DNA of 42,015 bases. Source: a virus (lineage: Duplodnaviria > Heunggongvirae > Uroviricota > Caudoviricetes). The stretch lies in IMG/VR virus record IMGVR_UViG_2537562195_000009; one strand, given 5' to 3'. The notes beneath the pieces were generated by a model. That model saw only the letters and a program-made list of their open reading frames with translations. It had not been told where the DNA came from and made no database searches. This document shows positions 1 through 40,489 of the stretch, one piece after another. Position 1 is the stretch's first letter, and each line of letters begins with the position of its first letter. The position numbers and the translations under genes were made by a program.

Positions 1-275
1 ATGGCATATAACAAATTATTTACGAGAGTCGATGAAATAAAATGTGATAAAAGTACGATACTAGGCTTTCACCAAGGGAATGGTTTACTGATGAAACAGT
101 AAATCTATAAAAATATTGTTTTTATACTCTACATTGATTCGGCATTAACTCTGCAATTTGTGGGGTAATTAATGTCAATTATGAAAAAAACATCCAATCA
201 TTATACTAAGTAGACTTATTAATTACATTGTGTGCTTTTTACATGCGTAACTAATATTTGCTCATTCCCACAATT

Positions 276-1403: not shown

Positions 1404-1629
1404 TACTTAAAATCCTTTGTAGAATAATAGAATCACTTTTCTTAATGACAGGAGTAACTAATTCTCCAACTAACTCTGCGTCCTCACGTACTCGCCATAG
1501 TCGACCTTGTTTCATTGCCGGTGGACAAAATAAATTCTGCTTAGCATAACGACGCAATGTGGACACACTTGGAGGGTTACTCCTAAATTTTTCCGCAGCC
1601 CATTCCTCAAGTGTCAGCATTTGAAGCAT
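1384..1629 (-). CDS. xis: excisionase (lambda Xis-like)
   Basis: 81-aa ORF overlapping int by 20 nt; LTLEEW...RR...PP..K.GR pattern like lambda Xis (YLTLQEW...RRW...PPP.KDGR); GAGG upstream. Confidence 0.8.
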   Translation of the reverse strand: MLQMLTLEEWAAEKFRSNPPSVSTLRRYAKQNLFCPPAMKQGRLWRVREDAELVGELVTPVIKKSDSIILQRILSNGSQTT

Positions 1630-1683
1630 TTTGATAACCTCATTTCTTTTGCTACAAAACTATTTCACTAGTTAATTTCGCAG

Positions 1684-2220
1684 TTAGGATTGCTTATGCA
1701 TCTTATGCAGCTCTTTAAAACGTTCCATAAACATCCCGTAGGCATGGCCCGGTGCCAGTGGAATCACGTTGAACATCTCTGTTGCCTGGATACCTTCCAG
1801 TACAGGCCAGAAAGAGCCATCATCAAGCCCGAGATCGCGGCGTTCGGTTGCCAGCATGATGAGATCGGCATATTTCACAGGCGTGCTTATAACCGGGGGT
1901 AACCCGTATTTCTCACGGATTATGGTGTCTATTTTTTCTTCCATCCGTTTATAGTCAGGAAGAAGGCGTTTCAGTGGTGCGGGGATGTCCTGGCAATACG
2001 CTTCTGTTGCATCATGCATTAACGCTTCAAAAGCAAATTCCTGCGGTACCAGCTGGCTGCAAAGCACCGCATGTTGGGCGACGCTGTAGAAGTGCGAAAG
2101 ATGACCGGCAAAGCGACAGATATTTGAAAGGGAAACCGCGATATCGTTAATATCGATGTCGTCTTTATTTATCCTGTCATAATAAAAATGCTTCCCAGAA
2201 AAAGTTTTAATAAATGACAT
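1684..2220 (-). CDS. yfdR: HD-domain phosphohydrolase/nucleotidase (YfdR-like, CPS-53 type)
   Basis: Start taken at internal ATG (MSFIKTFSG) preceded by GAGGAG; 178 aa; H...HD metal-binding signature (LSHFYSVAQHA ... LMHDATEAY). Confidence 0.7.
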   Translation of the reverse strand: MSFIKTFSGKHFYYDRINKDDIDINDIAVSLSNICRFAGHLSHFYSVAQHAVLCSQLVPQEFAFEALMHDATEAYCQDIPAPLKRLLPDYKRMEEKIDTIIREKYGLPPVISTPVKYADLIMLATERRDLGLDDGSFWPVLEGIQATEMFNVIPLAPGHAYGMFMERFKELHKMHKQS

Positions 2221-2348
2221 TTTGTTCTCCTCGTTATATGCGCTGCACCGCGCTGAATTTGGGTTAAAGAAAACCCTCGCCATCAGGCGATTATTGAGTC
2301 AATTACGTTTCCATAAATGCCCCCGCAGGGGCATTTGCAGTAATGAAA

Positions 2349-3173
2349 TCAGGCGGTGAAAGTACCAATAAAGGTTTCTACTTTGCTGTCCTTGAATTTC
2401 TCAACAAGCAGATCACGAAATTCGTTAGCCATTTCTTCCTGCACTGCTTCCAGCTGAATAATGCGCAGAACCAGTACAGGACGATCGCCAGTGATAATGC
2501 TGAGGCGTAATTTAAATGGACGTTCTTTCAGGCCTTCAAACGGAACGCATTTAAATTCAAATGCCACTGGCATAATGTCTTTGGTCTTCGCTTCGACAGA
2601 CTCCATCAGGGAGCGTTTGCCGCTGAAGTCATTATCTTCAAAATCAGCGGTCTGGTTTGCTTCAATCGTGATTTTACGGACAGCCGCAGCCGCTTTTGTT
2701 GCCTGAATAGCGTCACCATTAGCATCAAAGCCCACAAGGTAGTCGGCCCAGTCTTCAATCCATTCTGCCAGTGACTTCTGGGAATTACGCTCGCCATTAA
2801 CAGACAACAGAGCAGAGAACGGTGCTGTCTTTTTCAGTTTGAGAGTGGCGGTGTTATCTGCGTGACCTGGCTCATCAATAGTACCCAGGTTAAGCACACT
2901 GACGGCACGCATATTATCGGCATCGATAAAGCAGCGGGTGCCTTCATCTGCAAGATCTTTAGAATAACGGGTAAAGTCATCGATGCTGGCAGTGGAAAGC
3001 GCACCACGGAAACGGAAACGATTTAAATTAAATTTTTCCAGATCATGAATGCGGAAATTCTCAGGCAATGCCACAGCATCGGCACCAATCTTACTGATAA
3101 TTTCATTAACACCCTGAGCAGAAATAAGGGCATGGATTTGATTAATTGCGGTTGCGTCTAAGTTCTGAGACAT
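2349..3173 (-). CDS. YfdQ-like phage protein (DUF2303-type), function unknown
   Basis: 274-aa ORF, same strand and operon as the HD protein; recalled similarity to CPS-53 YfdQ (length match). Confidence 0.6.
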
Positions 3174-3238
3174 AATAAGTCCTCACTATATAAAGATATT
3201 CAGTGATGAGATAAATAATCAGTTTATTAAGAACGATA

Positions 3239-3601
3239 TTAACGACCTGCTGCGCGGAGTTTTCCGTCAGGTTCACCGGCAAGAGTCAGTAATTGTCCCT
3301 GGTCTTCCTGCAGAATAGTCAGGCGACCACCGCGATTGACATACATCGGCGTTTCGGTGGTGTCTTCTTCGGAAATTTTCCCGCGGTTAGTCGGGCGGAC
3401 ATATGAGAGTTTGTGTTTGATTTTCACACGGTTCTCATCAAACGGTTCGATTTCCAGATTGAGTGAGACCTTCCCTTTGGTTTTCGTGTTCATCACACCG
3501 GAAGCGACTTCACTGAGAACTGCGCCGATTTTGGTTTCAAATACGCCGCCGTCCAGCTCCCCGATAAATGCCTGCACATCAGTACTGCGTTCGCTAGCCA
3601 T
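3239..3601 (-). CDS. hypothetical early protein (YfdP-like)
   Basis: Longer ORF 3239..3919 trimmed to third ATG (MASERSTDV...) which has a GAGGAG RBS; 120 aa. Confidence 0.5.
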   Translation of the reverse strand: MASERSTDVQAFIGELDGGVFETKIGAVLSEVASGVMNTKTKGKVSLNLEIEPFDENRVKIKHKLSYVRPTNRGKISEEDTTETPMYVNRGGRLTILQEDQGQLLTLAGEPDGKLRAAGR

Positions 3602-4038
3602 TTTGCTGCTCCTCATCATATCGACCCTGCAAGGTCGGTTGGTTTCTCCACAAAACAGAGAAGAACACCTGCGGTGGCAGCCGCCCGGATGGATTGGGTT
3701 ATGAGCCCGTCGTCCGGTGATGCTCTTCTCTGTTTTGTAAAAAGAGCGGTACCAGCCGGAAGCAAGGGTACAAACTGGTACAGCCAGGACTACACACAGC
3801 ATAAAGTTGTGGTGCCGGGTGCCTCCCGGTGCCTGGCGAAGGTTGCACACCAGGCGGGTGGGTATCCACAGAAGGTCGACTGTCAGCCTCAACCTTAACC
3901 CGCGTGCGCTGAGCCGCATTCACCACAACGCTAAGGATTCTCTCTGGTTGAAAATACTTAGCTGTTATGTGCCTGTCTTTTCACCACTTCAGGCTCGGTG
4001 GTATCCTTTTAAGCCCGTATACATAAAAGGAAAATCAA

Positions 4039-4284
4039 ATGACTTTTGATGAAAAAGAACTTGATAATGCAATTAATAAAATCATCGTAACGTCGCTCTT
4101 TTCCTGTCTCAGCGACACTCAGCAGAAACAGTTCTACGAATCGGCTTTCAACATGATCGAGCGTTGTTGTTTCTGCGATGCCGACGAGTTACCTGAAAAA
4201 ATCAGGAAACAGTTGGCTGATGCTCTTCGAGTGCGACTTTCTGACCAATTTTCTGAAATGTACTCTCCGAATTTGGACAAATAG
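4039..4284 (+). CDS. hypothetical protein (81 aa), opposite strand to the early-left operon
   Basis: ORF with AAGGAAAA upstream of ATG; acidic, helical-looking product; overlaps 3' end of the convergent ORF 4202..4477. Confidence 0.4.
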   Translation: MTFDEKELDNAINKIIVTSLFSCLSDTQQKQFYESAFNMIERCCFCDADELPEKIRKQLADALRVRLSDQFSEMYSPNLDK

Positions 4285-4477
4285 AAAAAGGCCATTTCCA
4301 TTCAGGGTCTGATGGAAAGACTTCAGCCTGTTCCAAAGCACGGCGTAAAGAGAATACAACTCCAGCCATAATCTGATGTTTCCCATTGGTCCAGCTATCG
4401 CCGCTCTGATCTACAGGAGCGGCTATGTCGTATGACCAAACGACTTCATCACTATTGTTTAAAATCTGGACTTTCAT
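4202..4477 (-). CDS. hypothetical protein (91 aa)
   Basis: ORF with GGAGG upstream; in line with the leftward early operon. Confidence 0.4.
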   Translation of the reverse strand: MKVQILNNSDEVVWSYDIAAPVDQSGDSWTNGKHQIMAGVVFSLRRALEQAEVFPSDPEWKWPFSICPNSESTFQKIGQKVALEEHQPTVS

Positions 4478-4485
4478 TTTGTTCT

Positions 4486-4689
4486 TTAACCTCCAGATTT
4501 CCGCGCATCTAAAGGCGCATTCTCATTTGGTGTGAACCGAATAGTTGTGCTGCTATTGATTAATGCCCCGACACACAAGACTACGCACTCAGAGCAGATA
4601 GCAACTTCATCTTTTCCGCCTTTGGCGATGATTTTTTTTGCCTGCAGCTCGTTTGCGCCACAAAACGAGCATGTGAAATAACGGTTCAT
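4486..4689 (-). CDS. ClpX N-terminal zinc-binding-domain-like small protein
   Basis: MNRYFTCSFCGANELQAKKIIAKGGKDEVAICSECVVLCV closely mirrors the ClpX zinc-binding domain (CSFCGK...KLIAG...YICDECVDLC); start chosen at second ATG with AGAGAG upstream. Confidence 0.65.
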   Translation of the reverse strand: MNRYFTCSFCGANELQAKKIIAKGGKDEVAICSECVVLCVGALINSSTTIRFTPNENAPLDARKSGG

Positions 4690-4874
4690 TTGCGCTCTCT
4701 TACACATAGTATTTAACGAATCATCCGGTCATTCATACGCCACCGGCGGCTACTTCGTGGGCGTCCTGCCTGTTCGTTTTTGACATTTACTGACTGCTTA
4801 CGACACATGCACCGTGTTGCAACCAGATTTTGTTGTAATCCTGTAGTTGGTCTGGAACAAAAGATAAAATTAAA

Positions 4875-4911
4875 TTGCGAGATATGCAAGTGATATTTGC
4901 GAGATATGCAA
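4875..4911. promoter_or_regulatory. candidate OL operators: two copies of TTGCGAGATATGCAA spaced 22 bp
   Basis: Exact 15-bp direct repeat at 4875..4889 and 4897..4911 in the region between cI and the leftward early genes; TTGC..GCAA dyad ends. Confidence 0.5.
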
Positions 4912-4965
4912 ATTTATAGGTAATAAAAAGCCACCTTTCGGTGGCCGATGGATGGGATATTGAGG

Positions 4966-5658
4966 TTAATTATGTCTCTTAAGGGTTTGCGACTGACTGA
5001 TTAAGACCTTTCCAAAGACCATGAATCGGTGTTCGTTTTCGCTAGTAATTCCCCATTCACGGTAAATCTGGTTATCAGAAATCACCAGCAGTTTGTCAGG
5101 AATCATTTGAAGTCTTTTAACGTATATTTTGTCATCAAAACCAAAGACATATATACCATCACCATCAAACTGATTGATGCTGACATCAACGAAGATGAGA
5201 TCTCCGGGCTCAATGGTTGGACACATACTGTCCCCACGAACGTTGATAACTTTGATGTGATTGGCTGGTCGTCCGCCGAACATTGATACAGCATTATCAG
5301 TTCTGTATTCGATGGCATGAATCACATCAATGACATCACCGCCCTGGATAAGGCCATTTCCCGCACTGGCACTGATATCCAGCATTTCAATACGGAACAC
5401 ATCCTTCACCTGCGCAACATCCTCATTATTACTGTTTTTATATACAGTATTACTTTTGTGGGCAGAGGTAAAGAGATCAGCAATATCAACACCTAAGCTC
5501 CTGGCAATATTACTCAGTGTTTGTTCGGTAAATTGTTTTTGCTTACCCGTTTCTAAGCGCGAGATGTTCGCCGCATCTACTCCTATCGCTTCAGCGAGAT
5601 CGGCGATTTTCATGTTCTTCGCTTGGCGAAGTTGTCTGACTCGGTTTCCTATGTTCAT
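4966..5658 (-). CDS. cI: CI-type repressor (XRE HTH N-terminal plus S24 LexA-like peptidase C-terminal)
   Basis: 230 aa; N-terminal HTH (IADLAEAIGVDAANISRLETGK); C-terminal S24 fold with VRGDSMCPTIEPGDLIFVD and KIYVKRL; divergent from a cro-like gene. Confidence 0.85.
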   Translation of the reverse strand: MNIGNRVRQLRQAKNMKIADLAEAIGVDAANISRLETGKQKQFTEQTLSNIARSLGVDIADLFTSAHKSNTVYKNSNNEDVAQVKDVFRIEMLDISASAGNGLIQGGDVIDVIHAIEYRTDNAVSMFGGRPANHIKVINVRGDSMCPTIEPGDLIFVDVSINQFDGDGIYVFGFDDKIYVKRLQMIPDKLLVISDNQIYREWGITSENEHRFMVFGKVLISQSQTLKRHN

Positions 5659-5755
5659 GCGTTTATTACATTTCTTTATTGCGTGATAAGCAAATCAACT
5701 TGCGCAAAATAATTGCGTGAAATAACATGCATAACGCGCAATATTTGGAGGGCAT
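5659..5755. promoter_or_regulatory. candidate OR/PR/PRM divergent control region with operator-like motifs
   Basis: 97-bp gap between divergent cI and cro; contains TTGCGTGATAAGCAA (5679..5693) and related TTGCG...GCAA motifs resembling the OL repeat. Confidence 0.5.
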
Positions 5756-6016
5756 ATGCAATCACCATTACGAAATGTGCGTAAGGCGCATGGTTTCACT
5801 TTGCAGCATGTTGCTGCGGGTGTTCAAGTCAATCCAGCGACGTTGAGTCGTATTGAGAGGCTGGAGCAGATTCCATCTATCGAGCTTGCAGAACGTTTAG
5901 CCAATTTTTTTAAGGGTGAAGTCAGCGAAATGCAGATTCTTTATCCGGCACGTTTTCAATCTAGCCAAAACCAGAATGGGTTTAAACCACAGGAACAGGA
6001 GGTGAACCGTGGGTAA
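5756..6016 (+). CDS. cro: Cro-like HTH regulator
   Basis: 86 aa, GGAGG RBS, HTH (FTLQHVAAGVQVNPATLSRIER), divergent from cI. Confidence 0.75.
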   Translation: MQSPLRNVRKAHGFTLQHVAAGVQVNPATLSRIERLEQIPSIELAERLANFFKGEVSEMQILYPARFQSSQNQNGFKPQEQEVNRG

Positions 6017-6560
6017 GCATCACTGGAAAGTAGAAAAACAGCCTGAGTGGTACGTGAAAGCTGTCAGAAAAACTATCGCAGCGTTGCCGGGGGGGTACGC
6101 TGAAGCTGCTGACTGGCTGGATGTAACAGAGAACGCATTATTTAACCGCCTTCGTGCCGATGGCGATCAGATTTTCCCGCTGGGATGGGCAATGATTTTG
6201 CAACGTGCTGGTGGAACTCACTTCATTGCTGACGCTGTGGCGCAGTCTGCAAATGGCGTCTTTGTGTCTCTTCCTGATGTCGAGGATGTGGACAACGCCG
6301 ATATCAACCAACGCCTGCTGGAGGTCATTGAACAGATCGGCAGTTATTCAAAACAGATTCGTTCAGCAATTGAAGACGGTGTAGTGGAACCGCATGAGAA
6401 GACAGCAATTAACGATGAGCTGTACCTCTCAATTTCGAAGCTGCAGGAGCATGCAGCACTGGTCTACAAAATCTTTTGCGTTTCAGAAAGTAGTGACGCC
6501 CGCGAGTGTGCAGCTCCGGGCGCCGTGGCGTGTCGTGACTGTGGAGAAACTAACGCATGA
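6009..6560 (+). CDS. CII-like regulatory protein (CP76 family, YmfL-like)
   Basis: 183 aa, GTG start with AGGAGG RBS, directly after cro. Confidence 0.5.
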
Positions 6561-6895
6561 ACAGTTTAACAACACACTACCGTCGCTCGCAACTGATTGC
6601 GCTTCCTGTACCGGGTGGAAAAGCGAAGGTGGAGTATTGCTATGCAGTAAATGTACCAGGTGACAGGGAAATTGTAACCCACAGCTTTGCAGAGTGGGCT
6701 GTGGGTGATTTCAACCGGCAGAAGGAGACAGTCCTTTGCGACAAGTTAACCGCTGGTTCAAAGATCACTACGGAGTGCCCGTCAGAGTCATTCGTTGGGA
6801 GCCGGAAACACAACGGGTTATCTACCTCCGTGAAGGCTATGAGCATGAGTGCTTCAGCCCGCTCGAACAGTTTCGTCGTAAATTCAGGGAAATAG
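6557..6895 (+). CDS. YmfM-like protein (112 aa)
   Basis: ATGA overlap with upstream gene; length and position match e14 ymfM as recalled; 3' part also has a protein-like alternative frame (see findings). Confidence 0.45.
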
Positions 6896-6904
6896 AGGTC
6901 GGTC

Positions 6905-7846
6905 ATGAGCACTAAATTAACCGGCTATGTATGGGATGGTTGCGCTGCGTCAGGCATGAAATTATCCAGCGTGGCAATTATGGCCCGCCTGGCTGATTTC
7001 AGTAATGACGAAGGTGTGTGCTGGCCATCAATTGAAACCATTGCCCGTCAGATTGGCTCGGGGATGAGTACCGTCAGAACGGCTATCGCACGGCTGGAAG
7101 CAGAAGGCTGGTTAACGCGTAAGGCGCGTCGCCAGGGTAACCGCAATGCGTCGAATGTTTATCAGCTTAACGTTGCGAAGCTTCAGGCAGCGGCATTTTC
7201 TCAACTGTCAGATTCTGACCCGTCAAAATCTGACGCATCAAAATCTGACCCGTCAAAATTTGATGCGTCGAAATCTGGCAAAAAAGCGGGTTTTCACCCG
7301 TCAGAATCTGGCGGGGATCCGTCAGTAAAATCAAAACATGATCCGTCAGATAAAAAAACTTCTCGTCCGGACGCTTCGCAACCGGACACGCAGACGGCTG
7401 AACAGGAGTTTTTAACTCGCCATCCTGATGCGGTTGTATTCAGCCCTAAAAAGCGCCAGTGGGGAACGCAGGATGATTTGACCTGCGCACAGTGGCTCTG
7501 GAAAAAAATCATCGCCCTGTACGAGCAGGCCGCCGAATGTGACGGCGAGGTGGTTCGTCCCAAAGAACCGAACTGGACAGCCTGGGCAAACGAAATTCGC
7601 CTGATGTGTGTGCAGGATGGTCGTACTCATAAACAAATCTGCGAGATGTACAGCCGCGTCAGCCGCGATCCGTTCTGGTGCCGTAACGTGCTCAGCCCGT
7701 CGAAGCTGCGGGAAAAATGGGATGAGCTTTCCCTGCGCTTATCGCCGTCCGTCAGCACGTACACCGAAAAACGCGAAGACCCGTACTTCAAATCCAGTTA
7801 CGACAATGTGGACTACAGCCAGATCCCGGCAGGATTCAGGGGGTGA
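6905..7846 (+). CDS. replication initiator (lambda O-like) with internal origin repeats
   Basis: 313 aa; N-terminal HTH-like region (SIETIARQIGSGMSTVRTAIARLEAEGWL); central SK(S/F)D(P/A) peptide repeats encoded by DNA iterons; GAGGT RBS. Confidence 0.7.
   Translation: MSTKLTGYVWDGCAASGMKLSSVAIMARLADFSNDEGVCWPSIETIARQIGSGMSTVRTAIARLEAEGWLTRKARRQGNRNASNVYQLNVAKLQAAAFSQLSDSDPSKSDASKSDPSKFDASKSGKKAGFHPSESGGDPSVKSKHDPSDKKTSRPDASQPDTQTAEQEFLTRHPDAVVFSPKKRQWGTQDDLTCAQWLWKKIIALYEQAAECDGEVVRPKEPNWTAWANEIRLMCVQDGRTHKQICEMYSRVSRDPFWCRNVLSPSKLREKWDELSLRLSPSVSTYTEKREDPYFKSSYDNVDYSQIPAGFRG
7214..7273. repeat. iteron array (4 x 15 bp, with degenerate copies to about 7350), candidate replication origin
   Basis: tctgacccgtcaaaa / tctgacgcatcaaaa / tctgacccgtcaaaa / tttgatgcgtcgaaa in tandem inside the O-like gene, then further CCGTCAGA-containing copies and an A-rich stretch. 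Confidence 0.6.
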
Positions 7847-7848
7847 TC

Positions 7849-8337
7849 ATGAGTCTTTTGAATGACGTTCAGAAATTCATTGAAGCCCATCCGGGGTGTA
7901 CTTCCGGAGACATTGCGGATGCTTTTGCAGGTTACTCACGACAGCGCGTTCTGCAGTCAGCAAGCAAGTTACGTCAGAGTGGGCGTGTGGCTCACCGTTG
8001 TGAAGGGGATACACGCAGACATTTCCCGCGGCTGACTGAGATACCGCAGGAGCCGGAACCGCAACCAGTTCGTGAATCCAGACCTGTGCGCAATTTCTAT
8101 GTCGGCACTAACGATCCCCGGGTGATTTTGTGCCTGACCTGCCAGGCGGAAGAACTGGAGTCCAGGGGCTTATACCGTCGTGCTGCAACGGTGTGGATGG
8201 CGGCATTCCGTGAAAGCCACTCCCAGCCAGAACGAAATAATTTTCTGGCGCGTCGTGAACGGTGTTTACGGAAAAGCAGCAAGCGGGCTGCATCAGGTGA
8301 AGAGTGGTATCTGTCAGGGAATTACGTGGGGGCTTAA
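7849..8337 (+). CDS. hypothetical protein (YfdN-like)
   Basis: ORF after the O-like gene; start at ATG 7849 after AGGGGG; no domain recognised. Confidence 0.45.
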   Translation: MSLLNDVQKFIEAHPGCTSGDIADAFAGYSRQRVLQSASKLRQSGRVAHRCEGDTRRHFPRLTEIPQEPEPQPVRESRPVRNFYVGTNDPRVILCLTCQAEELESRGLYRRAATVWMAAFRESHSQPERNNFLARRERCLRKSSKRAASGEEWYLSGNYVGA

Positions 8338-8990
8338 TGAGTAATAAATATTGCCAGGCGCTGGTGGAACTACGGAACAAACCAGCCCATGAACTGAAGG
8401 AAGTGGGCGATCAGTGGCGCACGCCGGATAACATTTTCTGGGGAATTAACACCCTGTTTGGCCCGTTTGTTCTGGATCTGTTCACTGATGGTGATAACGC
8501 CAAATGTGCTGCGTATTACACGGCGGAAGACAACGCGCTGGCGCATGACTGGTCAGAACGTCTTGTGGAGCTTAAAGGTGCTGCCTTTGGTAATCCCCCA
8601 TACAGCCGCGCCAGTCAGCATGAGGGGCAATACATCACTGGCATGCGTTACATCATGAAGCATGCCAGTGCCATGCGTGATAAGGGCGGGCGCTATGTTT
8701 TCCTGATCAAAGCTGCCACCAGCGAAGTGTGGTGGCCGGAAGATGCAGATCATATTGCTTTTATTCGCGGGCGTATTGGTTTTGAACTGCCTGCCTGGTT
8801 TATCCCGAAAGACGAGAAGCAGGTGCCGACAGGAGCGTTCTTCGCTGGTGCTATTGCTGTTTTCGACAAGACCTGGAAGGGACCGGCAATCAGCTACATC
8901 GGGCGCGATGAACTTGAGGCATGTGGTGAGGCGTTTCTGGCGCAGGTTCGCCAGCAGGCGGAAAAACTGGTCAGGGAGATGGCGGCATGA
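8337..8990 (+). CDS. phage DNA N6-adenine methyltransferase (Dam type, orphan)
   Basis: 217 aa; catalytic NPPY motif (AAFGNPPYSRA); TAATG overlap with upstream gene; no adjacent restriction gene. Confidence 0.8.
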   Translation: MSNKYCQALVELRNKPAHELKEVGDQWRTPDNIFWGINTLFGPFVLDLFTDGDNAKCAAYYTAEDNALAHDWSERLVELKGAAFGNPPYSRASQHEGQYITGMRYIMKHASAMRDKGGRYVFLIKAATSEVWWPEDADHIAFIRGRIGFELPAWFIPKDEKQVPTGAFFAGAIAVFDKTWKGPAISYIGRDELEACGEAFLAQVRQQAEKLVREMAA

Positions 8991-9313
8991 CGACGTTAAC
9001 TCAATGCCAGCAGCAGGTGCTGGATATGCTGATTTCTTTCCAGCAAGAACGTGGCTTCCCGCCAACTAATCAGGAGGTGGCAACCATGCTGGGATACCGT
9101 TCAGTGAATGCAGCGGTGGAGCATCTTCGCGCACTGGAGAAAAAAGGCGTCATCACGATAAAGCGTGGCGTGGCCCGGGGGATAACGCTTCATACCGCGG
9201 TGAAGGACGACGACAGCGAGGCGGTCGGGATTATCCGCGCACTGCTTGCCGGTGAGGAAAACGCCAGGCTGCGTGCAGCCCACTGGTTACATGAGAGGGG
9301 CCTGAAAGTATGA
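8987..9313 (+). CDS. LexA N-terminal DNA-binding domain protein (no peptidase domain)
   Basis: 108 aa; QQQVLDMLISFQQERGFPPTNQEVATMLGYRSVNAAVEHLRALEKKGVI parallels the LexA DNA-binding domain; lacks the S24 C-terminal domain. Confidence 0.7.
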   Translation: MTTLTQCQQQVLDMLISFQQERGFPPTNQEVATMLGYRSVNAAVEHLRALEKKGVITIKRGVARGITLHTAVKDDDSEAVGIIRALLAGEENARLRAAHWLHERGLKV

Positions 9314-9699
9314 AGCTGATTCTGCCTTTTCCGCCCAGCGTGAACACGTACTGGCGACACCCCAACAAAGGGGCGTTTGCTGGTAAGAGCCTGATAAGCG
9401 CAGCGGGGCGCAAATTCCAGAGCGCGGCGTGTGCAGCAATAGTTGAGCAGTTACGCCGTCTGCCGAAACCAACGTCGGCACCTGCTTCAGTGGAGATCGT
9501 GTTGTTTCCTCCGGATAACCGGATCCGCGATCTGGACAACTATAACAAGGCGCTGTTTGACGCCCTGACCCACGCGGGTGTGTGGGAAGACGACAGTCAG
9601 GTGAAAAGAATGCTGGTGGAGTGGGGACCGGTTATCCCGGAAGGGAAGGTCGAGATCACTATCAGTAAGTACGAGAAAACGGCGGGTGCAGCCGCCTGA
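9310..9699 (+). CDS. rusA: Holliday junction resolvase RusA
   Basis: 129 aa; RusA signature RDLDNYNKALFDALTHAGVWEDDSQV. Confidence 0.85.
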   Translation: MKLILPFPPSVNTYWRHPNKGAFAGKSLISAAGRKFQSAACAAIVEQLRRLPKPTSAPASVEIVLFPPDNRIRDLDNYNKALFDALTHAGVWEDDSQVKRMLVEWGPVIPEGKVEITISKYEKTAGAAA

Positions 9700-9718
9700 T
9701 TAAGAGGAGAAACGAAGT

Positions 9719-10561
9719 ATGAATAATCTGATGGTCATTGATGGTATTGAAGTTCGTCGTGATGCTTATGGACGTTACAGCCTGAACGATCTGCATCGCG
9801 CAGCAGTAGCATCTGGTGCAAATGCCAGAACCAAGGAGCCGGGAAAGTTTCTTTCCAGCCAACAGATTACTGAGCTGGTTCAGGAATTGATCGATACCCA
9901 AAATCTGGGTGTCGGTTCATTCAATGAAACTACCCAAAATTTGGGTAGTAAACCTGTCAGTAAAATAGAAGGGCGGAATGGCGGAACATATGTCTGTAAG
10001 GAACTGGTGTATGCCTATGCAATGTGGATCAGCCCGTCATTCCATCTGAAGGTGATCCGCACTTTCGACATGGTAACCAGCGCACCGGAAAAATTATCCG
10101 GGCAGGCTGCTGACAAGATGCAGGCTGGCGTGATTCTGCTGGACTTTATGCGCCGGGAGTTAAATCTGTCTAACTCATCAGTGCTTGGTGCCTGTCAGAA
10201 ACTCCAGGAGGCTGTTGGCTTACCGAATCTGGCACCGCGCTATGCCATTGATGCTCCTGCTGACGCGCCTGATGGCTCAAGTCGCCCGACACTGTCGCTG
10301 AGTGCACTGCTGAAACAGTATGGTATCCGCCTTACGGCTAATCAGGCATATCACCAGATGGCGAAGCTGGGGATCGTCGAGCAGCGCGAACGATACAGCC
10401 GTACCTCGATTAACAACATCAAAAAATTCTGGTCGCTGACAGCGAAAGGTTGCATGTTCGGCAAGAACATCACCAGTCCCGCAAATCCGCGCGAGACGCA
10501 GCCGCATTTCTTCGAATCCCGATTCCCTGAGCTGTTAAAGCTGCTCGATACCGTTCATTGA
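9719..10561 (+). CDS. KilA-N domain protein (antirepressor-like)
   Basis: 280 aa; strong RBS AGAGGAGA; N-terminal KilA-N-like region (IDGIEVRRDAYGRYSLNDLHRAA). Confidence 0.55.
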   Translation: MNNLMVIDGIEVRRDAYGRYSLNDLHRAAVASGANARTKEPGKFLSSQQITELVQELIDTQNLGVGSFNETTQNLGSKPVSKIEGRNGGTYVCKELVYAYAMWISPSFHLKVIRTFDMVTSAPEKLSGQAADKMQAGVILLDFMRRELNLSNSSVLGACQKLQEAVGLPNLAPRYAIDAPADAPDGSSRPTLSLSALLKQYGIRLTANQAYHQMAKLGIVEQRERYSRTSINNIKKFWSLTAKGCMFGKNITSPANPRETQPHFFESRFPELLKLLDTVH

Positions 10562-10562
10562 G

Positions 10563-11427
10563 GTGACCGTGAGAGCACTACTGACCCCTGAAATTGCCCC
10601 GCGTATGGGGATCGTATTGTTCAGGCCCGGTTCAGAGCTGATGCCCCTGTTTATGCAGGGGCGTGTACTGCTGGAGCCTGAGCCGGAGCATTATTCATCT
10701 TTCGCCAGTGGTGCCGTTCCGGCGGCATCACAACCGCTGGCGGATGATCCTGCCGTTCAGGCCGTGTTCCGCAATGAGGCAGTGATCCGTCGTGCTGGTG
10801 GCGTGGAATGTCTTGAAAGCTGGTTACTTCGTGAAAAAGGCTGCCAGTGGCCTCATTCCGACTGGCACAGCGAGAACATGACCACAATGCGACACGCTCC
10901 GGGCGCAATCCGTCTGTGCTGGCACTGCGATAACCAGCTGCGCGATCAGTTCACGGAACGGCTGGAATCAATGGCAACGGATAACTGTGCCCGCTGGGTG
11001 TTGTCTGTTGTGCGTCGGGATCTCGGTTTTGATGACAGTCACGTTGTGACAATGCCGGAACTGTGCTGGTGGCTGATTCGTAATGATCTGGCGGATGCCT
11101 TACCGGAAAGTGCAGCCCGTAAGGCACTGAGATTACCGAAGCCTGTTGTGCCGTCTGTTACCCGGGAAAGTGACCTTGTGCCTTCGGTTCCTGCCACTAG
11201 CATCATCCAGGATAAGGCGAAAAAGGTGCTGGCGCTGAAAGTGGATCCGGAGTCGCCGGAGTCTTTTATGTTACGCCCAAAACGTCGCCGCTGGGTTAAT
11301 GAAAAGTACACGCGCTGGGTTAAGACACAGCCGTGTGCATGTTGTGGAAAGCCTGCTGATGATCCCCACCACCTGATAGGCCACGGTCAGGGTGGGATGG
11401 GTACAAAAGCGCATGACCTCTTTGTGT
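10563..11427 (+). pseudogene. DUF968-family phage gene, 5' portion, interrupted by IS66-family insertion
   Basis: GTG-start ORF whose reading frame runs into the IS end at 11428; with the IS and one duplication copy removed the frame continues into 14126..14264 (…DLFV|LPLCRKHHDELH…). Confidence 0.75.
11420..11427. repeat. target-site duplication (CTTTGTGT), left copy
   Basis: Identical 8-mer immediately flanks both IS ends. Confidence 0.8.
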
Positions 11428-11457
11428 GTAAGCGGCTCGCCAGAACCGTCTTAATAT

Positions 11458-13028
11458 TTACTGAGAGCTCAGATCAACTTTCCAGGGCAACAGATCGCGT
11501 ACCCGATTTGCCGGCCAGTCCTGGATATGCTCAATGACGTAACGCAGCCATTTTTCTGGCTCTACATTGTTCAGACGGCATGTGCCGATCAGCGAGTACA
11601 ACACCGCCGCATGTTCGCCACCGCTGTCGGAACCCGCGAACAACCAGTTCTTCCGGCCCACGGCCACACCCCGTAAGGCGTTCTCTGCGATGTTGTTGTC
11701 GATTTCCACCCAGCCATTGCTGCAGTACACGTTCAGGGCCTCCCACTGTTTCAGCAGGTATGCGAACGCTTTCGCCGTATCCGAGTGACGCGACAGGGTT
11801 TTCATCTGAGTCTGTATCCAGTCATACAGTGACTGCATCAGTGGCGCAGCTCTGGCTTTTCTTGCCGCCAGACGCTGTTCTGCTGTACATCCCCGGACTT
11901 CTGCCTCTATGGCATACAGTTCACCGATACGCTGCAGGGCTTCTGTGGTGATGTCGGTGGGCACTCTTGCATGCACATCGTGGATTTTTCTCCGGGCATG
12001 AGCCATACACGCGGCTTCCGTTATTCTGCCGGATTCGTATAACGCCCGGTAACCACCGTAAGCATCGGCCTGAAGCACTCCGCTGTAACCGGCCAGGTGA
12101 TTCTGTGGATGGATACCTTTCCGGTCCGGACTGTACGCGAACCAGACCGCCGGGGGCATCTGTGAACCGGCGTTACGGTCATCACGGACGTAGACCCACA
12201 GCCGGGCGGTCCGGGTTTTACCGCTGCCCGGCTCCTGGACCGGACGGGGATATCATCAGCATGGACTTTACCGGGCATCAGCACATACTGGCGCAGGACG
12301 TCATACAGCGGCTCCAGCAGTTCAGCAACGGCACCTGTCCAGCGCCCCAGTGTGGCACGGCTCAGCTCCACTCCCTGACGACGGTATATTTCTGACTGAC
12401 GGTATAACGGCAGATGGTCTGCATATTTCCCGGTGACAACATGGGCCAGAAGCCCCGCTCCGGCATAGCTGCGTACAATGGGTTTTGAAGGCACCGGCGC
12501 CTGCACGATATGGTCACAACGGCAACAGGCCAGTTTCGGACGTTGTGTTTCGATAACCTTAAAGGCGCTGCTGATAAGCTCCAGTTGCTCTGACACATCA
12601 CATCCCAGTGGACTGAGTTCACCACCACAGGCCGGACAGCATTCCTCTTCCGGCCGGATGACCCGGGTTTCACGGGGAAGTGAGGCCGGTAACGGTTTAC
12701 GGGCTGAAGACTGGCGCAGGGCGGATGGCAGTGCCGGGTCATATTGCTCACCCAGCGTTTCCGCCATTTCTTCCTGAAGTGCGCTGATTCGCTCCTGTGC
12801 TTCCTGTATCTGTCGTTCGGTTTTTGCGCGAAGTTTTTCTGAGCTTTTACCGAACTGCATGCGCTGCAGTTTTGCAACCAGCGCCTTCAGCCGGTTGATT
12901 TCGGAAGCATAAGCCGCCACCCGCTGTGAGAGCAGGCGGTTGTATTCAGCCATCTGGCGGATGGTGTCCTGTTGCGTCTGCAACAGTGCCCGCAGGCGGG
13001 CATTCTCATGAGCAAGTGAGGTATCCAT
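11458..13028 (-). pseudogene. tnpC: IS66 transposase TnpC, frameshifted into two ORFs (12021..13028 and 11458..12159)
   Basis: N-terminal ORF (zinc-finger CPACG...CCRC) and C-terminal ORF (DDE region) are in different frames; frame breaks near 12230..12250 (…DDIPV then out-of-frame text). Confidence 0.8.
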
Positions 13029-13047
13029 ATCCTCACTTTACAACGGG

Positions 13048-13395
13048 TTATATGCGGATTCCAGCGCGTTCCGTTCGTTTCGGGTGCTTCCAGTTGATGC
13101 CCTCAAGAAGCATGGATAACTGAGCCGGAGTAAGGTGAACCTTACCATCGCGGGTGACCGGCCAGACGAAGCGGCCCCGCTCCAGGCGTTTGGTGAAGAG
13201 GCACAGTCCGTCGCTGTCAGCCCACAACACTTTTATCTGGTCACCCCGGCGTCCGCGGAAGATGAACAGGTGTCCGGAGAACGGGTCATCCTTCAGGACG
13301 TTCTGAACTTTTGAGGCCAGGCCGTTAAAGCCATTTCGCATGTCGGTGATGCCGGCAACCAGCCAGATACGCGAACCTGCAGGGAGAGATATCAT
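13048..13395 (-). CDS. tnpB: IS66 Orf2 (TnpB)
   Basis: 115 aa, typical IS66 TnpB sequence (MISLPAGSRIWLVAGITDMRNGFNGLA…). Confidence 0.85.
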   Translation of the reverse strand: MISLPAGSRIWLVAGITDMRNGFNGLASKVQNVLKDDPFSGHLFIFRGRRGDQIKVLWADSDGLCLFTKRLERGRFVWPVTRDGKVHLTPAQLSMLLEGINWKHPKRTERAGIRI

Positions 13396-14072
13396 CAGTG
13401 GCTGCTCCCTTTCATTTCGCGGATAAGTGTCTGTAATAACGCCGGCGTCAGTTTACCTTTAAGCCTGAGAGTTCCGGTCGGCAGAACCAGCTCACAGCAC
13501 AGACTGTCGGACGGTGTATTTATCTGCTCTGGTTCCTGTGCCGGAGCCGGGATTTTATTATCCGGCTCCGGCGTTAACGTCACGGGAAGCAGTGCAGGCA
13601 TATTTTTTCCGGAAGGCAGCAGGCCACCTTTCCGGTATTGATGGCGCCAGTTGAAGAGCAGGTTATCGTTGATTCCGTTTTCACGGGCGATCTGCGCCAC
13701 ACAGGCTCCGGGCTGCAGTGACTGCTCCACTAAGGCGATTTTAAACGCATAAGGAAAATTAGGCCGCCGGGGACGTTTTTTTACCACCGGGACTTCGGAC
13801 ATAACGGTGTTTTCAGTAAGTACGACAGGTACTGTGGAGGCACTCCCGTAAAGACAGGCATCAAGTTCCCGCTCCGACATACTTGCGGGCAGAGGCCATG
13901 AAAGGCCAGCTTTGCGGAAGCGCACGAACATACCACAAACTGTTGATTTTGGTACGCCCAGGCGACGTCCGGCCACAATCCGTGGTAAATGTTCTTCAAA
14001 GTGAAGACGTAAAGCTTCGGTGATCCAGGTCCGGTATTCCATACGATAGTGTCCATTAAAAATGATGGACAT
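13395..14072 (-). CDS. tnpA: IS66 Orf1 (TnpA) with N-terminal HTH extension
   Basis: C-terminal half has the IS66 Orf1 pattern (KKRPRRPNFPYAFKIALVEQSLQPGACVAQIARENGINDNLLFNWRHQYR); true start may be internal. Confidence 0.7.
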   Translation of the reverse strand: MSIIFNGHYRMEYRTWITEALRLHFEEHLPRIVAGRRLGVPKSTVCGMFVRFRKAGLSWPLPASMSERELDACLYGSASTVPVVLTENTVMSEVPVVKKRPRRPNFPYAFKIALVEQSLQPGACVAQIARENGINDNLLFNWRHQYRKGGLLPSGKNMPALLPVTLTPEPDNKIPAPAQEPEQINTPSDSLCCELVLPTGTLRLKGKLTPALLQTLIREMKGSSH

Positions 14073-14125
14073 TATTTTTGTGGAGCCGGAGGAAACAGAC
14101 CAGACGGTTCAGATGAGGCGCTTAC

Positions 14126-14133
14126 CTTTGTGT
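14126..14133. repeat. target-site duplication (CTTTGTGT), right copy
   Basis: Identical to 11420..11427. Confidence 0.8.
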
Positions 14134-14264
14134 TGCCTTTGTGCAGAAAGCATCACGACGAGCTGCATGCGGATACCGTGGCATTTGAAGAGAAGTATGG
14201 CTCCCAGCTGGAGCTGATATTTCGTTTTATCGATCGTGCGCTGGCAATTGGCGTGCTGGCCTGA
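14126..14264 (+). pseudogene. DUF968-family gene, 3' remnant after the IS
   Basis: In-frame continuation of 10563..11427 once the IS is removed; the track ORF 14049..14264 is a chimera of IS end plus this remnant. Confidence 0.75.
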
Positions 14265-36381: not shown

Positions 36382-37164
36382 ATGCATCGTATAGACACGA
36401 AAACCGCGCAGAAGGATAAGTTCGGCGCGGGTAAGAACGGTTTTACCCGTGGTAACCCCCAGACCGGCACACCTGCCACCGATCTGGATGATGACTACTT
36501 TGACATGTTGCAGGAAGAACTTTGTAGCGTGGTGGAGGCCTCCGGTGCCAGCCTGGAGAAAGGGCGGCATGACCAGCTACTTACCGCGCTTCGCGCGCTG
36601 CTGTTAAGCCGCAAGAATCCGTTTGGCGATATCAAATCGGATGGCACGGTGAAAACGGCTCTCGAAAACCTTGGTTTGGGAGAAGGCTCAGCATTACCCG
36701 TTGGTGTGCCTGTTCCGTGGCCTTCAGCCACTCCGCCAACAGGCTGGCTGAAATGCAACGGAGCAGCTTTTTCTGCTGAAGAATACCCGGAACTGGCAAA
36801 GGCTTATCCGACAAATAAATTACCTGATTTACGCGGTGAGTTTATTCGTGGCTGGGATGACGGACGTGGAGTGGATAACGGAAGGGGATTATTAACGCTT
36901 CAGGACGGTGCGATTGTCAGTCATAACCACTATTGGGGAATCTGGACTTCACGAACTAACGACCAGACTCTGGGAAGTTTTACAGGCACCACGATTTTAA
37001 AACAAATCACGCCCCTGTCTCCGGCCATTGACTTCGATAATTACCCAATTCCCAACCCGGCTATTACAGAGGGTGGTGTTGTTGCGGCAACGACTAAACC
37101 TGCAGGTGCGAATGAAACACGCCCACGAAATGTCGCTTTTAACTATATTGTGAGGGCTGCATAA
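36382..37164 (+). CDS. tail fibre protein; constant N-terminus plus variable C-terminus inside an invertible segment
   Basis: 260 aa; crossover site lies in codons ENLGLGEGS (36661..36690); C-terminal GEFIRG...[13 protein letters not shown] collar-like motif. Confidence 0.8.
36662..36686. repeat. invertase crossover site, left (gix/pix-like)
   Basis: TCGAAAACCTTGGTTTGGGAGAAGG; inverted copy at 38516..38539 shares the TTGGTTTGGGAGAAG core in the same codon phase. Confidence 0.75.
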
Positions 37165-37766
37165 TGAATAACGCAGAATTAAACAGTGAATTAATTGCCA
37201 CTATGGCAGGAGAAATTACTGTTTATAACTTTGACGTCATGAGTCGGGAGTATATTTCAGCTTCAACTGAATATCTTGCTGTTGGTGTCGGCATTCCGGC
37301 ATATTCCTGTTTAGATGCTCCAGGCACCTACAAAGCTGGTTATGCAATCTGCCGCTCTGCAGATTTTAACTCATGGGAATATGTACCAGACCATCGCGGT
37401 GAAATCGTCTATAACACCGAAACGGGAGACGCCAAAGAAATCACAACTCCGGGTGATTACCCCGAAAAAACAACCACTATCGCCCCGTTAACGCCATACG
37501 ATAAATGGGATGGTGAGAAATGGGTGACGGATACTGAGACACAGCATAGCGCCGCAGTAGACGCGGCAGAAGCACAACGTCAGTCACTGATTGATACTGC
37601 AATGGCTTCCATTAGTCTGATTCAACTGAAATTGCAGGCCGGGCGGAAGCTGATGCAGGCAGAGACCACCCGACTTAACACTGTGCTGGATTACATTGAC
37701 GCGGTGACGGCAACAGATACCAGTACCGCGCCGGATGTCATCTGGCCTGAACTGCCGGAGGAGTAG
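37164..37766 (+). CDS. tail fibre assembly protein (Tfa)
   Basis: 200 aa; conserved Tfa C-terminus (…LDYIDAVTATDTSTAPDVIWPELP). Confidence 0.8.
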   Translation: MNNAELNSELIATMAGEITVYNFDVMSREYISASTEYLAVGVGIPAYSCLDAPGTYKAGYAICRSADFNSWEYVPDHRGEIVYNTETGDAKEITTPGDYPEKTTTIAPLTPYDKWDGEKWVTDTETQHSAAVDAAEAQRQSLIDTAMASISLIQLKLQAGRKLMQAETTRLNTVLDYIDAVTATDTSTAPDVIWPELPEE

Positions 37767-38169
37767 GCCATTCAATATCTGGCGCACTGGAAGTATCGAC
37801 CAGTTCCAGTGCGTCCAGATAATCCAGCCACAAATTATATTGCGCCAGTTCCTCACCTTTCAGACGACCAATCGCCGCTTTACCAGGCCATTGTTTACTG
37901 TTCATGTATTCGTTGGCCTGATTAACTAATCGCTGTTTATTTGATTCAGCGATTGAGATTAATTCTTCGCTGGTAAGTGGTGGCGCATCCTGCCATGCTG
38001 GAAAACCATTTTTATCTGAACCAAGTATTTTACCATCAGGCCATGCAACTCCTGCGAACTCAGAATAAATAGTAAAGTTTATTTTCGTAGCGTTCTCAGG
38101 AATGGTTTGGCTATCTGGTGAAATATAAAATCCCGAATCAGAGGGATTAAAATAATATGTCTTTTCCAT
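37738..38169 (-). CDS. alternative tail fibre assembly protein (Tfa'), inverted orientation
   Basis: 143 aa; same Tfa C-terminal motif (…LDYLDALELVDTSSAPDIEWPTPP). Confidence 0.8.
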   Translation of the reverse strand: MEKTYYFNPSDSGFYISPDSQTIPENATKINFTIYSEFAGVAWPDGKILGSDKNGFPAWQDAPPLTSEELISIAESNKQRLVNQANEYMNSKQWPGKAAIGRLKGEELAQYNLWLDYLDALELVDTSSAPDIEWPTPPAVQAR

Positions 38170-38171
38170 AG

Positions 38172-38527
38172 TTAATACCCCACAGCCATCCAGTAAATTG
38201 AATTTGTTGTAGCAGAAGTGTAAGTAAATCTGATTTTAGTTCTGTTGGTACTTCCAATATCAAAGCCCACAGAACGGGCAGAAGGATCATTAGTTGAAAT
38301 AAGAGCGTTTACCGAACGACAAGCAGCAGGGAAAGCTACAGGTAATGTTATATCAACTGTTCCAACACTTCCTCCGGTTGGTGAGACAGAAAAACTCCCC
38401 CATTGAATAATCATCCCCCCAGGTAATTTCTGGTATCCATTGGCGGTCAATGAGTTACCAAAGCTGTTCATATCCGGTACCTGATTTTCTCCTGTCCCCA
38501 CATTCCTCTTTGCCGCTTCTCCCAAAC
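38172..38527 (-). CDS. alternative tail fibre C-terminal cassette, expressed only after inversion
   Basis: Minus-strand ORF whose 5' end contains the inverted crossover core (…NVGLGEAAKR…) in frame with the constant fibre N-terminus. Confidence 0.7.
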
Positions 38528-38539
38528 CAACGTTTATGA
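38516..38539. repeat. invertase crossover site, right (inverted copy)
   Basis: Reverse complement TCATAAACGTTGGTTTGGGAGAAG matches the left site at about 21 of 24 positions. Confidence 0.75.
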
Positions 38540-38596
38540 AAATGCAGAAATAACGAGCAAATGGCATCATTCCTGCTTTTGTCAGGGAGATCTACC

Positions 38597-39151
38597 ATGC
38601 TTATTGGCTATGTACGTGTGTCAACAAATGACCAGAACACAGATCTACAACGTAATGCGCTGAACTGTGCAGGATGCGAGCTGATTTTTGAAGACAAGAT
38701 AAGCGGTACAAAGTCCGAAAGGCCGGGACTGAAAAAACTGCTCAGGACATTATCGGCAGGTGATACGCTGGTGGTCTGGAAACTGGACCGACTGGGGCGC
38801 AGTATGCGGCATCTTGTCGTGCTGGTGGAGGAGTTGCGCGAACGAGGCATCAACTTTCGTAGTCTGACGGATTCAATTGATACCAGTACCCCAATGGGGC
38901 GCTTTTTCTTTCATGTGATGGGTGCCCTGGCTGAAATGGAGCGTGAACTGATTGTTGAAAGAACAAAAGCTGGACTGGAAGCTGCTCGCGCACAGGGACG
39001 AATTGGTGGACGTCGTCCCAAACTTACACCAGAACAATGGGAACAGGCCGGACGATTAATTGCATCAGGAGTTCCTCGCCAGAAGGTGGCGATTATCTAT
39101 GATGTTGGTGTGTCAACTTTGTATAAGAGGTTTCCTGCAGGGGATAAATAA
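38597..39151 (+). CDS. pin: serine DNA invertase (Pin/Gin/Hin family)
   Basis: Start at internal ATG (MLIGYVRVSTNDQNTDLQ); resolvase catalytic N-terminus plus C-terminal HTH; adjacent to invertible fibre segment. Confidence 0.9.
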   Translation: MLIGYVRVSTNDQNTDLQRNALNCAGCELIFEDKISGTKSERPGLKKLLRTLSAGDTLVVWKLDRLGRSMRHLVVLVEELRERGINFRSLTDSIDTSTPMGRFFFHVMGALAEMERELIVERTKAGLEAARAQGRIGGRRPKLTPEQWEQAGRLIASGVPRQKVAIIYDVGVSTLYKRFPAGDK

Positions 39152-39257: not shown

Positions 39258-40091
39258 ATGCATGTTTTTGATAATAATGGAATTGAACTGAAAGCTGAGT
39301 GTTCGATAGGTGAAGAGGATGGTGTTTATGGTCTAATCCTTGAGTCGTGGGGGCCGGGTGACAGAAACAAAGATTACAATATCGCTCTTGATTATATCAT
39401 TGAACGGTTGGTTGATTCTGGTGTATCCCAAGTCGTAGTATATCTGGCGTCATCATCAGTCAGAAAACATATGCATTCTTTGGATGAAAGAAAAATCCAT
39501 CCTGGTGAATATTTTACTTTGATTGGTAATAGCCCCCGCGATATACGCTTGAAGATGTGTGGTTATCAGGCTTATTTTAGTCGTACGGGGAGAAAGGAAA
39601 TTCCTTCCGGCAATAGAACGAAACGAATATTGATAAATGTTCCAGGTATTTATAGTGACAGTTTTTGGGCGTCTATAATACGTGGAGAACTATCAGAGCT
39701 TTCACAGCCTACAGATGATGAATCGCTTCTGAATATGAGGGTTAGTAAATTAATTAAGAAAACGTTGAGTCAACCCGAGGGCTCTAGGAAACCAGTTGAG
39801 GTAGAAAGACTACAAAAAGTTTATGTCCGAGACCCGATGGTAAAAGCTTGGATTTTACAGCAAAGTAAAGGTATATGTGAAAACTGTGGTAAAAATGCTC
39901 CGTTTTATTTAAATGATGGAAACCCATATTTGGAAGTGCATCATGTAATTCCCCTGTCTTCAGGTGGTGCTGATACAACAGATAACTGTGTTGCCCTTTG
40001 TCCGAATTGCCATAGAGAATTGCACTATAGTAAAAATGCAAAAGAACTAATCGAGATGCTTTACGTTAATATAAACCGATTACAGAAATAA
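39258..40091 (+). CDS. mcrA: McrA-like HNH nuclease (Type IV modification-dependent restriction)
   Basis: 277 aa, low GC; C-terminal HNH motif (CENCG…EVHHVIPLSSGG…NCVALCPNCH); pin-mcrA-icd-fragment order matches the e14 right end as recalled. Confidence 0.7.
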   Translation: MHVFDNNGIELKAECSIGEEDGVYGLILESWGPGDRNKDYNIALDYIIERLVDSGVSQVVVYLASSSVRKHMHSLDERKIHPGEYFTLIGNSPRDIRLKMCGYQAYFSRTGRKEIPSGNRTKRILINVPGIYSDSFWASIIRGELSELSQPTDDESLLNMRVSKLIKKTLSQPEGSRKPVEVERLQKVYVRDPMVKAWILQQSKGICENCGKNAPFYLNDGNPYLEVHHVIPLSSGGADTTDNCVALCPNCHRELHYSKNAKELIEMLYVNINRLQK

Positions 40092-40324: not shown

Positions 40325-40489
40325 ATGTTACGCCATATGGGCTGGACTGAAGCCGCAGACCTGATTGTTAAAGGTATGGAAGGCGCAATCAATGCGAAGA
40401 CCGTAACCTATGACTTCGAGCGTCTGATGGAAGGCGCTAAACTGCTGAAATGTTCAGAATTTGGTGATGCGATCATCAAGAACATGTAA
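40325..40489 (+). pseudogene. icdC: isocitrate dehydrogenase 3' fragment (icdC-like), prophage right attachment junction
   Basis: Translates as [54 protein letters not shown], matching the recalled Icd C-terminus; an in-frame stop lies immediately upstream, so no icd body. Confidence 0.8.

Follow-up and report, generated by a model that had tools for sequence, protein, structure and literature searches.

Inversion of the P segment of prophage e14 by Pin was reportedly described by Plasterk and van de Putte in 1985, and a 2004 report by Mehta et al. is likewise cited for the e14 element of Escherichia coli K-12. The inversion was re-examined in 2014 and in 2025. Both forms of the K-12 segment were detected within single clones by whole-genome sequencing and PCR (PMC4272514), and wild-type K-12 was approximately 30% inverted as determined by qPCR, with deletion of pinE locking the segment in the non-inverted orientation (PMC12529663). 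PinQ, encoded by the Qin prophage, also inverts this K-12 segment (PMC12529663). Comparable switches are the G segment of phage Mu, served by the invertase Gin, and the C segment of phage P1, served by Cin. In Mu, a constant fibre part (Sc) with a recombination site in the fibre gene is followed by the S-U and U'-S' pairs, a second site, and the 5' end of the invertase gene beside the segment. The G segment is approximately 3 kb long, its fibres are comparatively long (S, 504 aa), and its sites have TC as the core dinucleotide. The P1 C segment spans 4.2 kb and lies beside the 3' end of cin, which points to the site cixL.

The locus described here is a known system whose exact sequence RefSeq already contains, together with annotation of pinE and the fibre genes, and it differs from the textbook K-12 case only in prophage completeness, captured orientation, and cargo alleles. 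The window, that is, the whole 42,015-nt stretch of DNA that was analysed, contains an e14-like prophage of roughly 38 kb at icd, which retains the integrase, the early and lysis genes, and the terminase, and which encodes a head of the HK97 type and a contractile tail and baseplate of the Mu type. Towards its right end, the window reaches the right junction of e14 with the E. coli chromosome, marked by pinE, mcrA, a fragment of the 3' part of icd (40325-40489), iraM, and ycgX; neither attL nor the intact icd falls within the window limits. The right-arm order, ymfQ-stf-[P segment]-pinE-mcrA, is as in e14, and nucleotide identity between K-12 and the window is 96-97% across jayE-ymfQ-Sc and pinE-mcrA-icdC-iraM. 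The K-12 e14 is a 15-kb remnant, whereas the prophage in the window is full length, with its lysis, head, and tail modules all present. Strain 00-3076 of E. coli (NZ_CP027584.1) is 99.98% identical to the window across positions 14126-42015, and positions 1-11427 match the same record at 99.9% with a 2.7-kb shift. We rejected the possibility that the window is exactly the 00-3076 sequence, since the two are distinguished by a 2.7-kb IS insertion and a shifted start.

The invertible segment is bounded by the following features:

36671-38530, no strand: invertible P segment, 1,860 bp from core to core and 1,830 bp between the exact 15-mers
36659-36684, no strand: left recombination site pixL, CTCTCGAAAACC-TT-GGTTTGGGAGAA, with the core TT at 36671-36672 in codon 97 of the fibre gene
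38517-38542, no strand: right recombination site pixR, TTCTCCCAAACC-AA-CGTTTATGAAAA, with the core AA at 38529-38530

An earlier note on this DNA had proposed two inverted copies of a site of approximately 24 bp, and their presence was borne out: positions 36662-36685 match the reverse complement of 38516-38539 at 21 of 24 positions, and the coordinates agree within approximately 3 nt at each end. The length required revision, since the functional unit is instead 26 bp with a 2-bp core; we set these limits from the annotated Mu G-segment boundaries and the P1 cixL and cixR crossover points. Each site consists of two imperfect 12-bp half-sites flanking the core (12-2-12), and the right site, written as its reverse complement, reads TTTTCATAAACG-TT-GGTTTGGGAGAA, so that both cores are the same dinucleotide (TT/AA) in inverted orientation. 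The near-perfect inverted repeat extends no further than the inner half-site and the core plus 5 nt of the outer half-site. Its exact part is the 15-mer TTGGTTTGGGAGAAG, of which the window has only two copies, at 36671-36685 on the plus strand and 38516-38530 on the minus strand (chance expectation approximately 0.11 matches with two mismatches tolerated), and a repeat finder returned 20-nt arms at 36666-36685 and 38516-38535, complementary at 19 of 20 positions (95%) and 1,830 nt apart.

The sites align to known invertase substrates, a check that the earlier note had proposed. Both are identical at 26 of 26 positions to their left and right counterparts in e14 of K-12 MG1655, and they match Mu gix or P1 cix at 17-20 of 26 positions. 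The left site alone matches gix at 18 and cixL at 20 positions. When the 42-kb window was scanned with the consensus TTNTCNNAAACCNNGGTTTNNGANAA, allowing at most three mismatches, these two inverted sites were the only matches (0.03 expected); no third or cryptic site that would permit multiple inversions in the style of shufflons or p15B Min was found in the window at this threshold. Exactly two sites of the same kind flank the cassette in every related locus examined. The right site lies upstream of the invertase gene, as proposed, and ends 54 nt before its ATG at 38597.

Between and beside these sites lie the two halves of a fibre module:

36382-36684, plus strand: constant 5' part (Sc) of the tail-fibre gene, residues 1-101, through ...ENLGLGE
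36685-37164, plus strand: variable fibre C-terminus Sv, now joined to Sc, residues 102-260 (Pfam Collar, PF07484, E=1.6e-15)
37164-37766, plus strand: tfa, tail-fibre assembly chaperone cognate to Sv, 200 aa (Pfam Caudo_TAP, E=4.8e-30)
37738-38169, minus strand: tfa', alternative chaperone, 143 aa (Pfam Caudo_TAP, E=4.7e-30)
38172-38516, minus strand: alternative, unfused fibre C-terminus Sv' (Pfam Gp53-like_C, PF21882, E=9.1e-19)

This arrangement agrees with the proposal that the segment holds a fibre C-terminus plus Tfa in one orientation and Tfa' plus an alternative C-terminus in the other, with the Collar and Caudo_TAP domains on the plus strand and the Caudo_TAP and Gp53-like_C domains on the minus strand. 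The tfa and tfa' genes are convergent, and their 3' ends overlap by 29 nt. Sv matches the T4 gp37 tip (PDB 2xgf, 1e-16) and chains of the T4 gp12 short fibre, and is a predicted collar-type receptor-binding region. Sv' matches PDB 4mtm (8.5e-9) and the R1 pyocin fibre (6cxb), and is a predicted gp53-like receptor-binding domain. The baseplate genes have a GC content of 0.58, which drops to 0.42-0.43 in tfa' and Sv'. Rfam and tRNA scans across the whole window returned no RNA genes.

The K-12 e14 P segment shares with the window its locus (icd ... pinE-mcrA-icd'-iraM) and its gene order (Sc, site, Sv-tfa/tfa'-Sv', site, pin), and its Sc is 96% identical at the nucleotide level (ycfK/stfP, up to the site). 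The cargo alleles differ. Sv is identical to K-12 stfE at 102 of 175 positions and differs in the distal half of the collar tip, whereas Tfa is identical to TfaE at 171 of 199; Tfa' resembles TfaP in its C-terminal half only (53/78), its N-terminal half being unrelated, and Sv' matches the StfP C-terminus at just 43 of 131 positions (33%). The segment measures 1,830 nt between exact 15-mers here, compared with 1,797 bp between the 16-nt repeats in K-12 (PMC12529663), and its orientation is opposite to that of the MG1655 reference.

More distant systems share the same plan. In both Mu and the window, the cassette has the layout given above for the G segment and lies downstream of Mu-type baseplate genes (gp47/gp48 homologues); the Mu sites have the same 12-2-12 architecture and match at 17-18 of 26 positions, but the core is TC rather than TT, the segment and fibres are longer, and the fibre tips are unrelated. 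The P1 sites cixL and cixR match at 18-20 of 26 positions and have the TT/AA core, whereas the P1 segment is longer and the invertase gene is placed differently, the 5' end of pin facing the segment here. P2-like prophages and phages, as in E. coli ST866 (L010) and Klebsiella phage Kp4870-2 (L012), carry an Sv/Tfa/Tfa'/Sv' cassette approximately 93% identical to that in the window, two sites of the same type, and an adjacent invertase; they differ in having a P2 gpH-type fibre N-terminus, a P2-type tail module, and a different invertase allele. A cassette in strain R12 that appeared expanded, with four annotated tail-fibre assembly genes, was rejected as such, and consists of tfa fragments with two sites only.

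The tail-fibre open reading frame in the window (36382-37164, plus strand) encodes 260 aa, with the crossover dinucleotide in codon 97 (Leu). The minus-strand copy of the site reads ...NVGLGE... in the frame of the fibre gene, and since the left site lies in codon 97 and ...GLGE... is encoded in the same frame at both segment ends, inversion replaces the fibre from residue 102 onwards while Sc stays in place in both orientations. The claim of the earlier note that the sites share one codon phase and allow an in-frame swap was upheld by flipping 36671-38530 in silico, which produced an uninterrupted 215-aa open reading frame sharing residues 1-101 with the 260-aa product. In the orientation of the window, the collar-type tip would thus complete a 260-aa fibre, with the cognate chaperone Tfa encoded next; after inversion, the fibre would have 215 aa and end in the gp53-like tip, with Tfa' encoded next. 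As the tips come from unrelated receptor-binding families (Collar, T4 gp37/gp12-like, and gp53/R-pyocin-like), the switch should alternate receptor specificity.

Both orientations are present in public genomes. Using a coverage threshold of at least 80% of the 2,901-nt cassette sequence, either as is or flipped in silico, we found the as-is form in 20 complete E. coli genomes and the flipped form in 10, with 100%-identity matches in each orientation. With 36671-38530 flipped, the window agrees with the sequence of RM10466 at all but one of 8,716 nt. A second case is that of L006 and L007, pig isolates that share a sampling site and have chromosomes of 5,270,552 and 5,270,553 bp: a direct comparison of 8,855 nt around the cassette gives 1,382 differences, and none is left after the equivalent interval has been flipped. 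Thus the two forms exist in otherwise identical genomes, and the expectation that would have spoken against a switch, namely only one orientation ever being observed, does not hold. A pair differing over 8,855 bp by the flip alone requires recent inversion, and so do the genomes that are 100% identical over 2,901 nt in both orientations. The switch is real and almost certainly active, and we infer that it also operates in the strain from which the window derives.

The gene adjacent to the right site, and a candidate regulatory element within it, are as follows:

38597-39151, plus strand: pin, serine DNA invertase, 184 aa (Pfam Resolvase, 1.5e-51, and HTH_7, 1.4e-13)
38615-38686, no strand: putative recombinational (Fis) enhancer within the 5' end of pin (nt 19-90), assigned by homology only

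The identification of this invertase as Pin was confirmed by its serine recombinase domains and by its identity to K-12 PinE at 180 of 184 residues (98%); it is 83% identical to Cin and 79% identical to Gin. The open reading frame is intact, and the catalytic Ser9, in the motif YVRVST, is invariant with Gin and Cin. Positions 38615-38686 align with the stretch of P1 cin (nt 19-90) annotated as the enhancer of Cin-mediated C-segment inversion, with 55 of 72 nucleotides identical to cin and 54 of 72 to gin, compared with 64 and 60 of 94, respectively, over the next 94 nt; third-codon-position conservation in this stretch showed no excess over the rest of pin. Two candidate 15-mers of the form G-N13-C at pin nt 22-36 and 71-85, shared with gin, are 49 nt apart from centre to centre, and the Fis sites of the Hin enhancer are spaced by approximately 48 nt. 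We regard this stretch as a putative recombinational enhancer. Pin residues Q150, R153, and L154 are invariant across the Pin, PinE, Gin, and Cin alignment and are the equivalents of Hin Q151, R154, and L155, which contact Fis and the enhancer and are conserved only in Fis-dependent invertases (PMC3798978). By analogy with these invertases, inversion in the window would depend on Fis and the enhancer. A simple sigma-70 scan of 38543-38596 gave no convincing promoter for pin or for the minus-strand leader described below.

Taken together, the locus is very probably the classical P-segment/Pin inversion switch of an e14-family prophage at icd in E. coli, exchanging a fibre tip and its chaperone in frame, and the mechanism that the earlier note had named from the Mu G and e14 P segments is supported by sites, domains, invertase, and orientations alike. 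In the mechanism that we propose, Pin dimers would bind the two inverted 26-bp sites, and, as for Hin, Gin, and Cin, the bound sites would form a synapse with the enhancer in the 5' part of pin, itself occupied by Fis. Cutting at the 2-bp core (TT/AA) and strand exchange would then invert the 1,860 bp between the cores.

One further feature bears on what the host may gain from the switch:

38529-38570, minus strand: 14-codon leader MMPFARYFCIFINV, outside the segment, providing an in-frame ATG for Sv'

Joined to Sv', this leader forms an annotated 132-aa open reading frame (38172-38570) with a predicted product, in which the leader is a 14-residue hydrophobic stretch. Its K-12 counterpart, created by inversion, is StfE2 (PMC12529663). 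The IS66-family insertion that interrupts the prophage, together with the frameshifts annotated in three early-region genes of the near-identical strain 00-3076, indicates that the prophage may be unable to produce virions; a switch of host range would then have no consequence at the phage level. The record vB_EcoM-689R6 was considered as an isolated e14-like phage and rejected; the contig, labelled "partial genome", is flanked by chromosomal sequence and breaks at the invertible segment, and so offers no evidence for a viable virion.

These observations raise the alternative that the element is a domesticated defence switch in a defective prophage, the 132-aa protein of leader and tip blocking adsorption of other phages. 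In K-12, the product of inversion, StfE2, likewise joins the leader to a gp53-like tip, and it blocks T2 adsorption when expressed from a plasmid (PMC12529663). The orientation in the window places the leader before the gp53-like tip, and the external ATGATG start, 13-14 codons outside the segment, is kept in K-12, in the related loci L006 and L009, in a P2-like E. coli prophage, and in a Klebsiella P2-like phage. However, the leader is absent from L011 and from the Yersinia phage L013, and the ATGATG may be conserved for another reason, as part of the pin promoter or 5' UTR on the opposite strand. An AGGA directly abuts the first ATG of the leader, which is a poor Shine-Dalgarno spacing, and the simple promoter scan was negative. 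The 33% identity of the tip to its K-12 counterpart means that the K-12 specificity is not transferable, and the structural module from terminase to fibre is annotated as intact in 00-3076, consistent with a functional tail. On balance we consider this alternative unlikely. It is compatible with the inversion mechanism, and only the pay-off assigned to the switch would change. Somewhat more doubtful still is the specific proposal that the unfused tip is a host-benefiting adsorption blocker like StfE2, presumably with a different phage target given the divergent tip. If it were true, the switch would toggle defence specificity in addition to the virion fibre, possibly also in P2-like or Mu-like elements that keep the external start.

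As to the enzyme, Pin need not be the only invertase acting on the segment, because PinQ also inverts the K-12 counterpart, and a PinQ- or PinR-like invertase from another prophage could in principle account for most inversion in trans, leaving a minor role to the adjacent pin. Over-produced PinQ inverted 88% of the K-12 segment, compared with 49% for PinE, yet the locking of the K-12 segment upon pinE deletion means that PinE is needed at native expression levels (PMC12529663), and we hold a mainly trans-acting source of inversion to be improbable. Finally, a frozen relic, in which repeats and pin persist, inversion has ceased in the lineage, and the database orientations are ancient and clonally inherited, would be consistent with the negative result of the simple scan for a pin promoter, but with an intact pin 98% identical to the experimentally active PinE, sites identical to those of K-12, and a near-isogenic pair of isolates whose identity after the flip a relic could not produce, it is highly improbable and effectively excluded.

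The classical P-segment switch is thus represented here by a clean, full-length example of the e14 family whose segment is turned the other way from that of the K-12 reference. Short-read assemblers break or mis-orient this region, and annotation pipelines give the same two fibre genes different names according to orientation. Homology between the cassette and phage records, which include P2-like phages, the lambdoid phage HK106, and Klebsiella phages, begins at query positions 279-290 (window 36660-36671), either inside the left site or at it. The cargo therefore acts as a module that is exchanged horizontally and has the site as its boundary, and it is swapped between fixed sites among Mu-like, P2-like, and lambdoid phages.

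Homology between phage records and the cassette of collar fibre tip and Tfa starts at window positions 36660-36671, in or at the left recombination site, in a region that codes for NLGLGE. The records with homology starting there comprised P2-like, lambdoid (HK106), Klebsiella, Citrobacter and Salmonella phages. Because homology starts in or at the site in these records, the left-site region doubles as a border of horizontal module exchange. The four-gene invertible cassette was also present, at ~93% identity, in a P2-like prophage of E. coli ST866 (L010, NZ_CP077646.1, positions 1500-4016), where by contrast it is joined to a 366-aa gpH-type fibre and accompanied by the prophage's own 192-aa invertase.

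The start codon for the unfused fibre tip lies outside the invertible segment, as an in-frame ATGATG at 38565-38570 on the minus strand, 13-14 codons beyond the segment. Its position is kept in K-12, in two e14-like E. coli loci (L006 and L009), in the P2-like prophage of ST866 and in the Klebsiella P2-like phage Kp4870-2. In Mu, an ATG is found at -13 codons. Among the related loci compared, no ATGATG counterpart was found in L011, in which pin is frameshifted, or in a Yersinia phage. Conservation of the ATGATG may reflect either the leader ORF or the pin promoter and 5' UTR on the opposite strand.

Features outside the cassette were as follows, in window coordinates except for the first three, which are those of the near-identical prophage in strain 00-3076 (L001).

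6324-6634, early-region gene annotated as frameshifted (L001)
8717-9267, early-region gene annotated as frameshifted (L001)
13276-14264, early-region gene annotated as frameshifted (L001)
13395-14072 and 13048-13395, TnpA/TnpB-like ORFs of an IS66-family element
39258-40091, McrA, an HNH type IV restriction enzyme (GC 0.38)
40325-40489, duplicated icd 3' end

According to the annotation, the frameshifted trio comprises the gene of a hypothetical protein, ymfL and the DUF968 gene, and since these three early-region genes are frameshifted in 00-3076, the prophage element may be defective, despite a structural module annotated as intact. In the window, the DUF968 gene is interrupted by the 2.7-kb IS66-family element (11428-14125), whose transposase is split into two ORFs of 335 aa and 233 aa; strain 00-3076, 99.9% identical outside the insertion, does not carry it. 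McrA is a moron, flanked by pin on one side and by the duplicated icd 3' end on the other. The window does not reach the left attachment site or the intact icd gene.

The record ON470584.1, entered as a 'partial genome' of Escherichia phage vB_EcoM-689R6, represents a contig of an e14-like prophage that also contains the chromosomal genes icd, mnmA and hflD. The contig breaks at the invertible segment, illustrating how short-read assemblies are disrupted by the inversion switch. PGAP names for the same cassette genes also vary with segment orientation: depending on how the segment lies, the fused fibre is called either 'tail fiber protein' or 'gp53-like domain-containing protein', and the unfused copy either 'gp53-like domain-containing protein' or 'phage tail protein'. 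Such orientation-dependent naming could mislead pan-genome comparisons.
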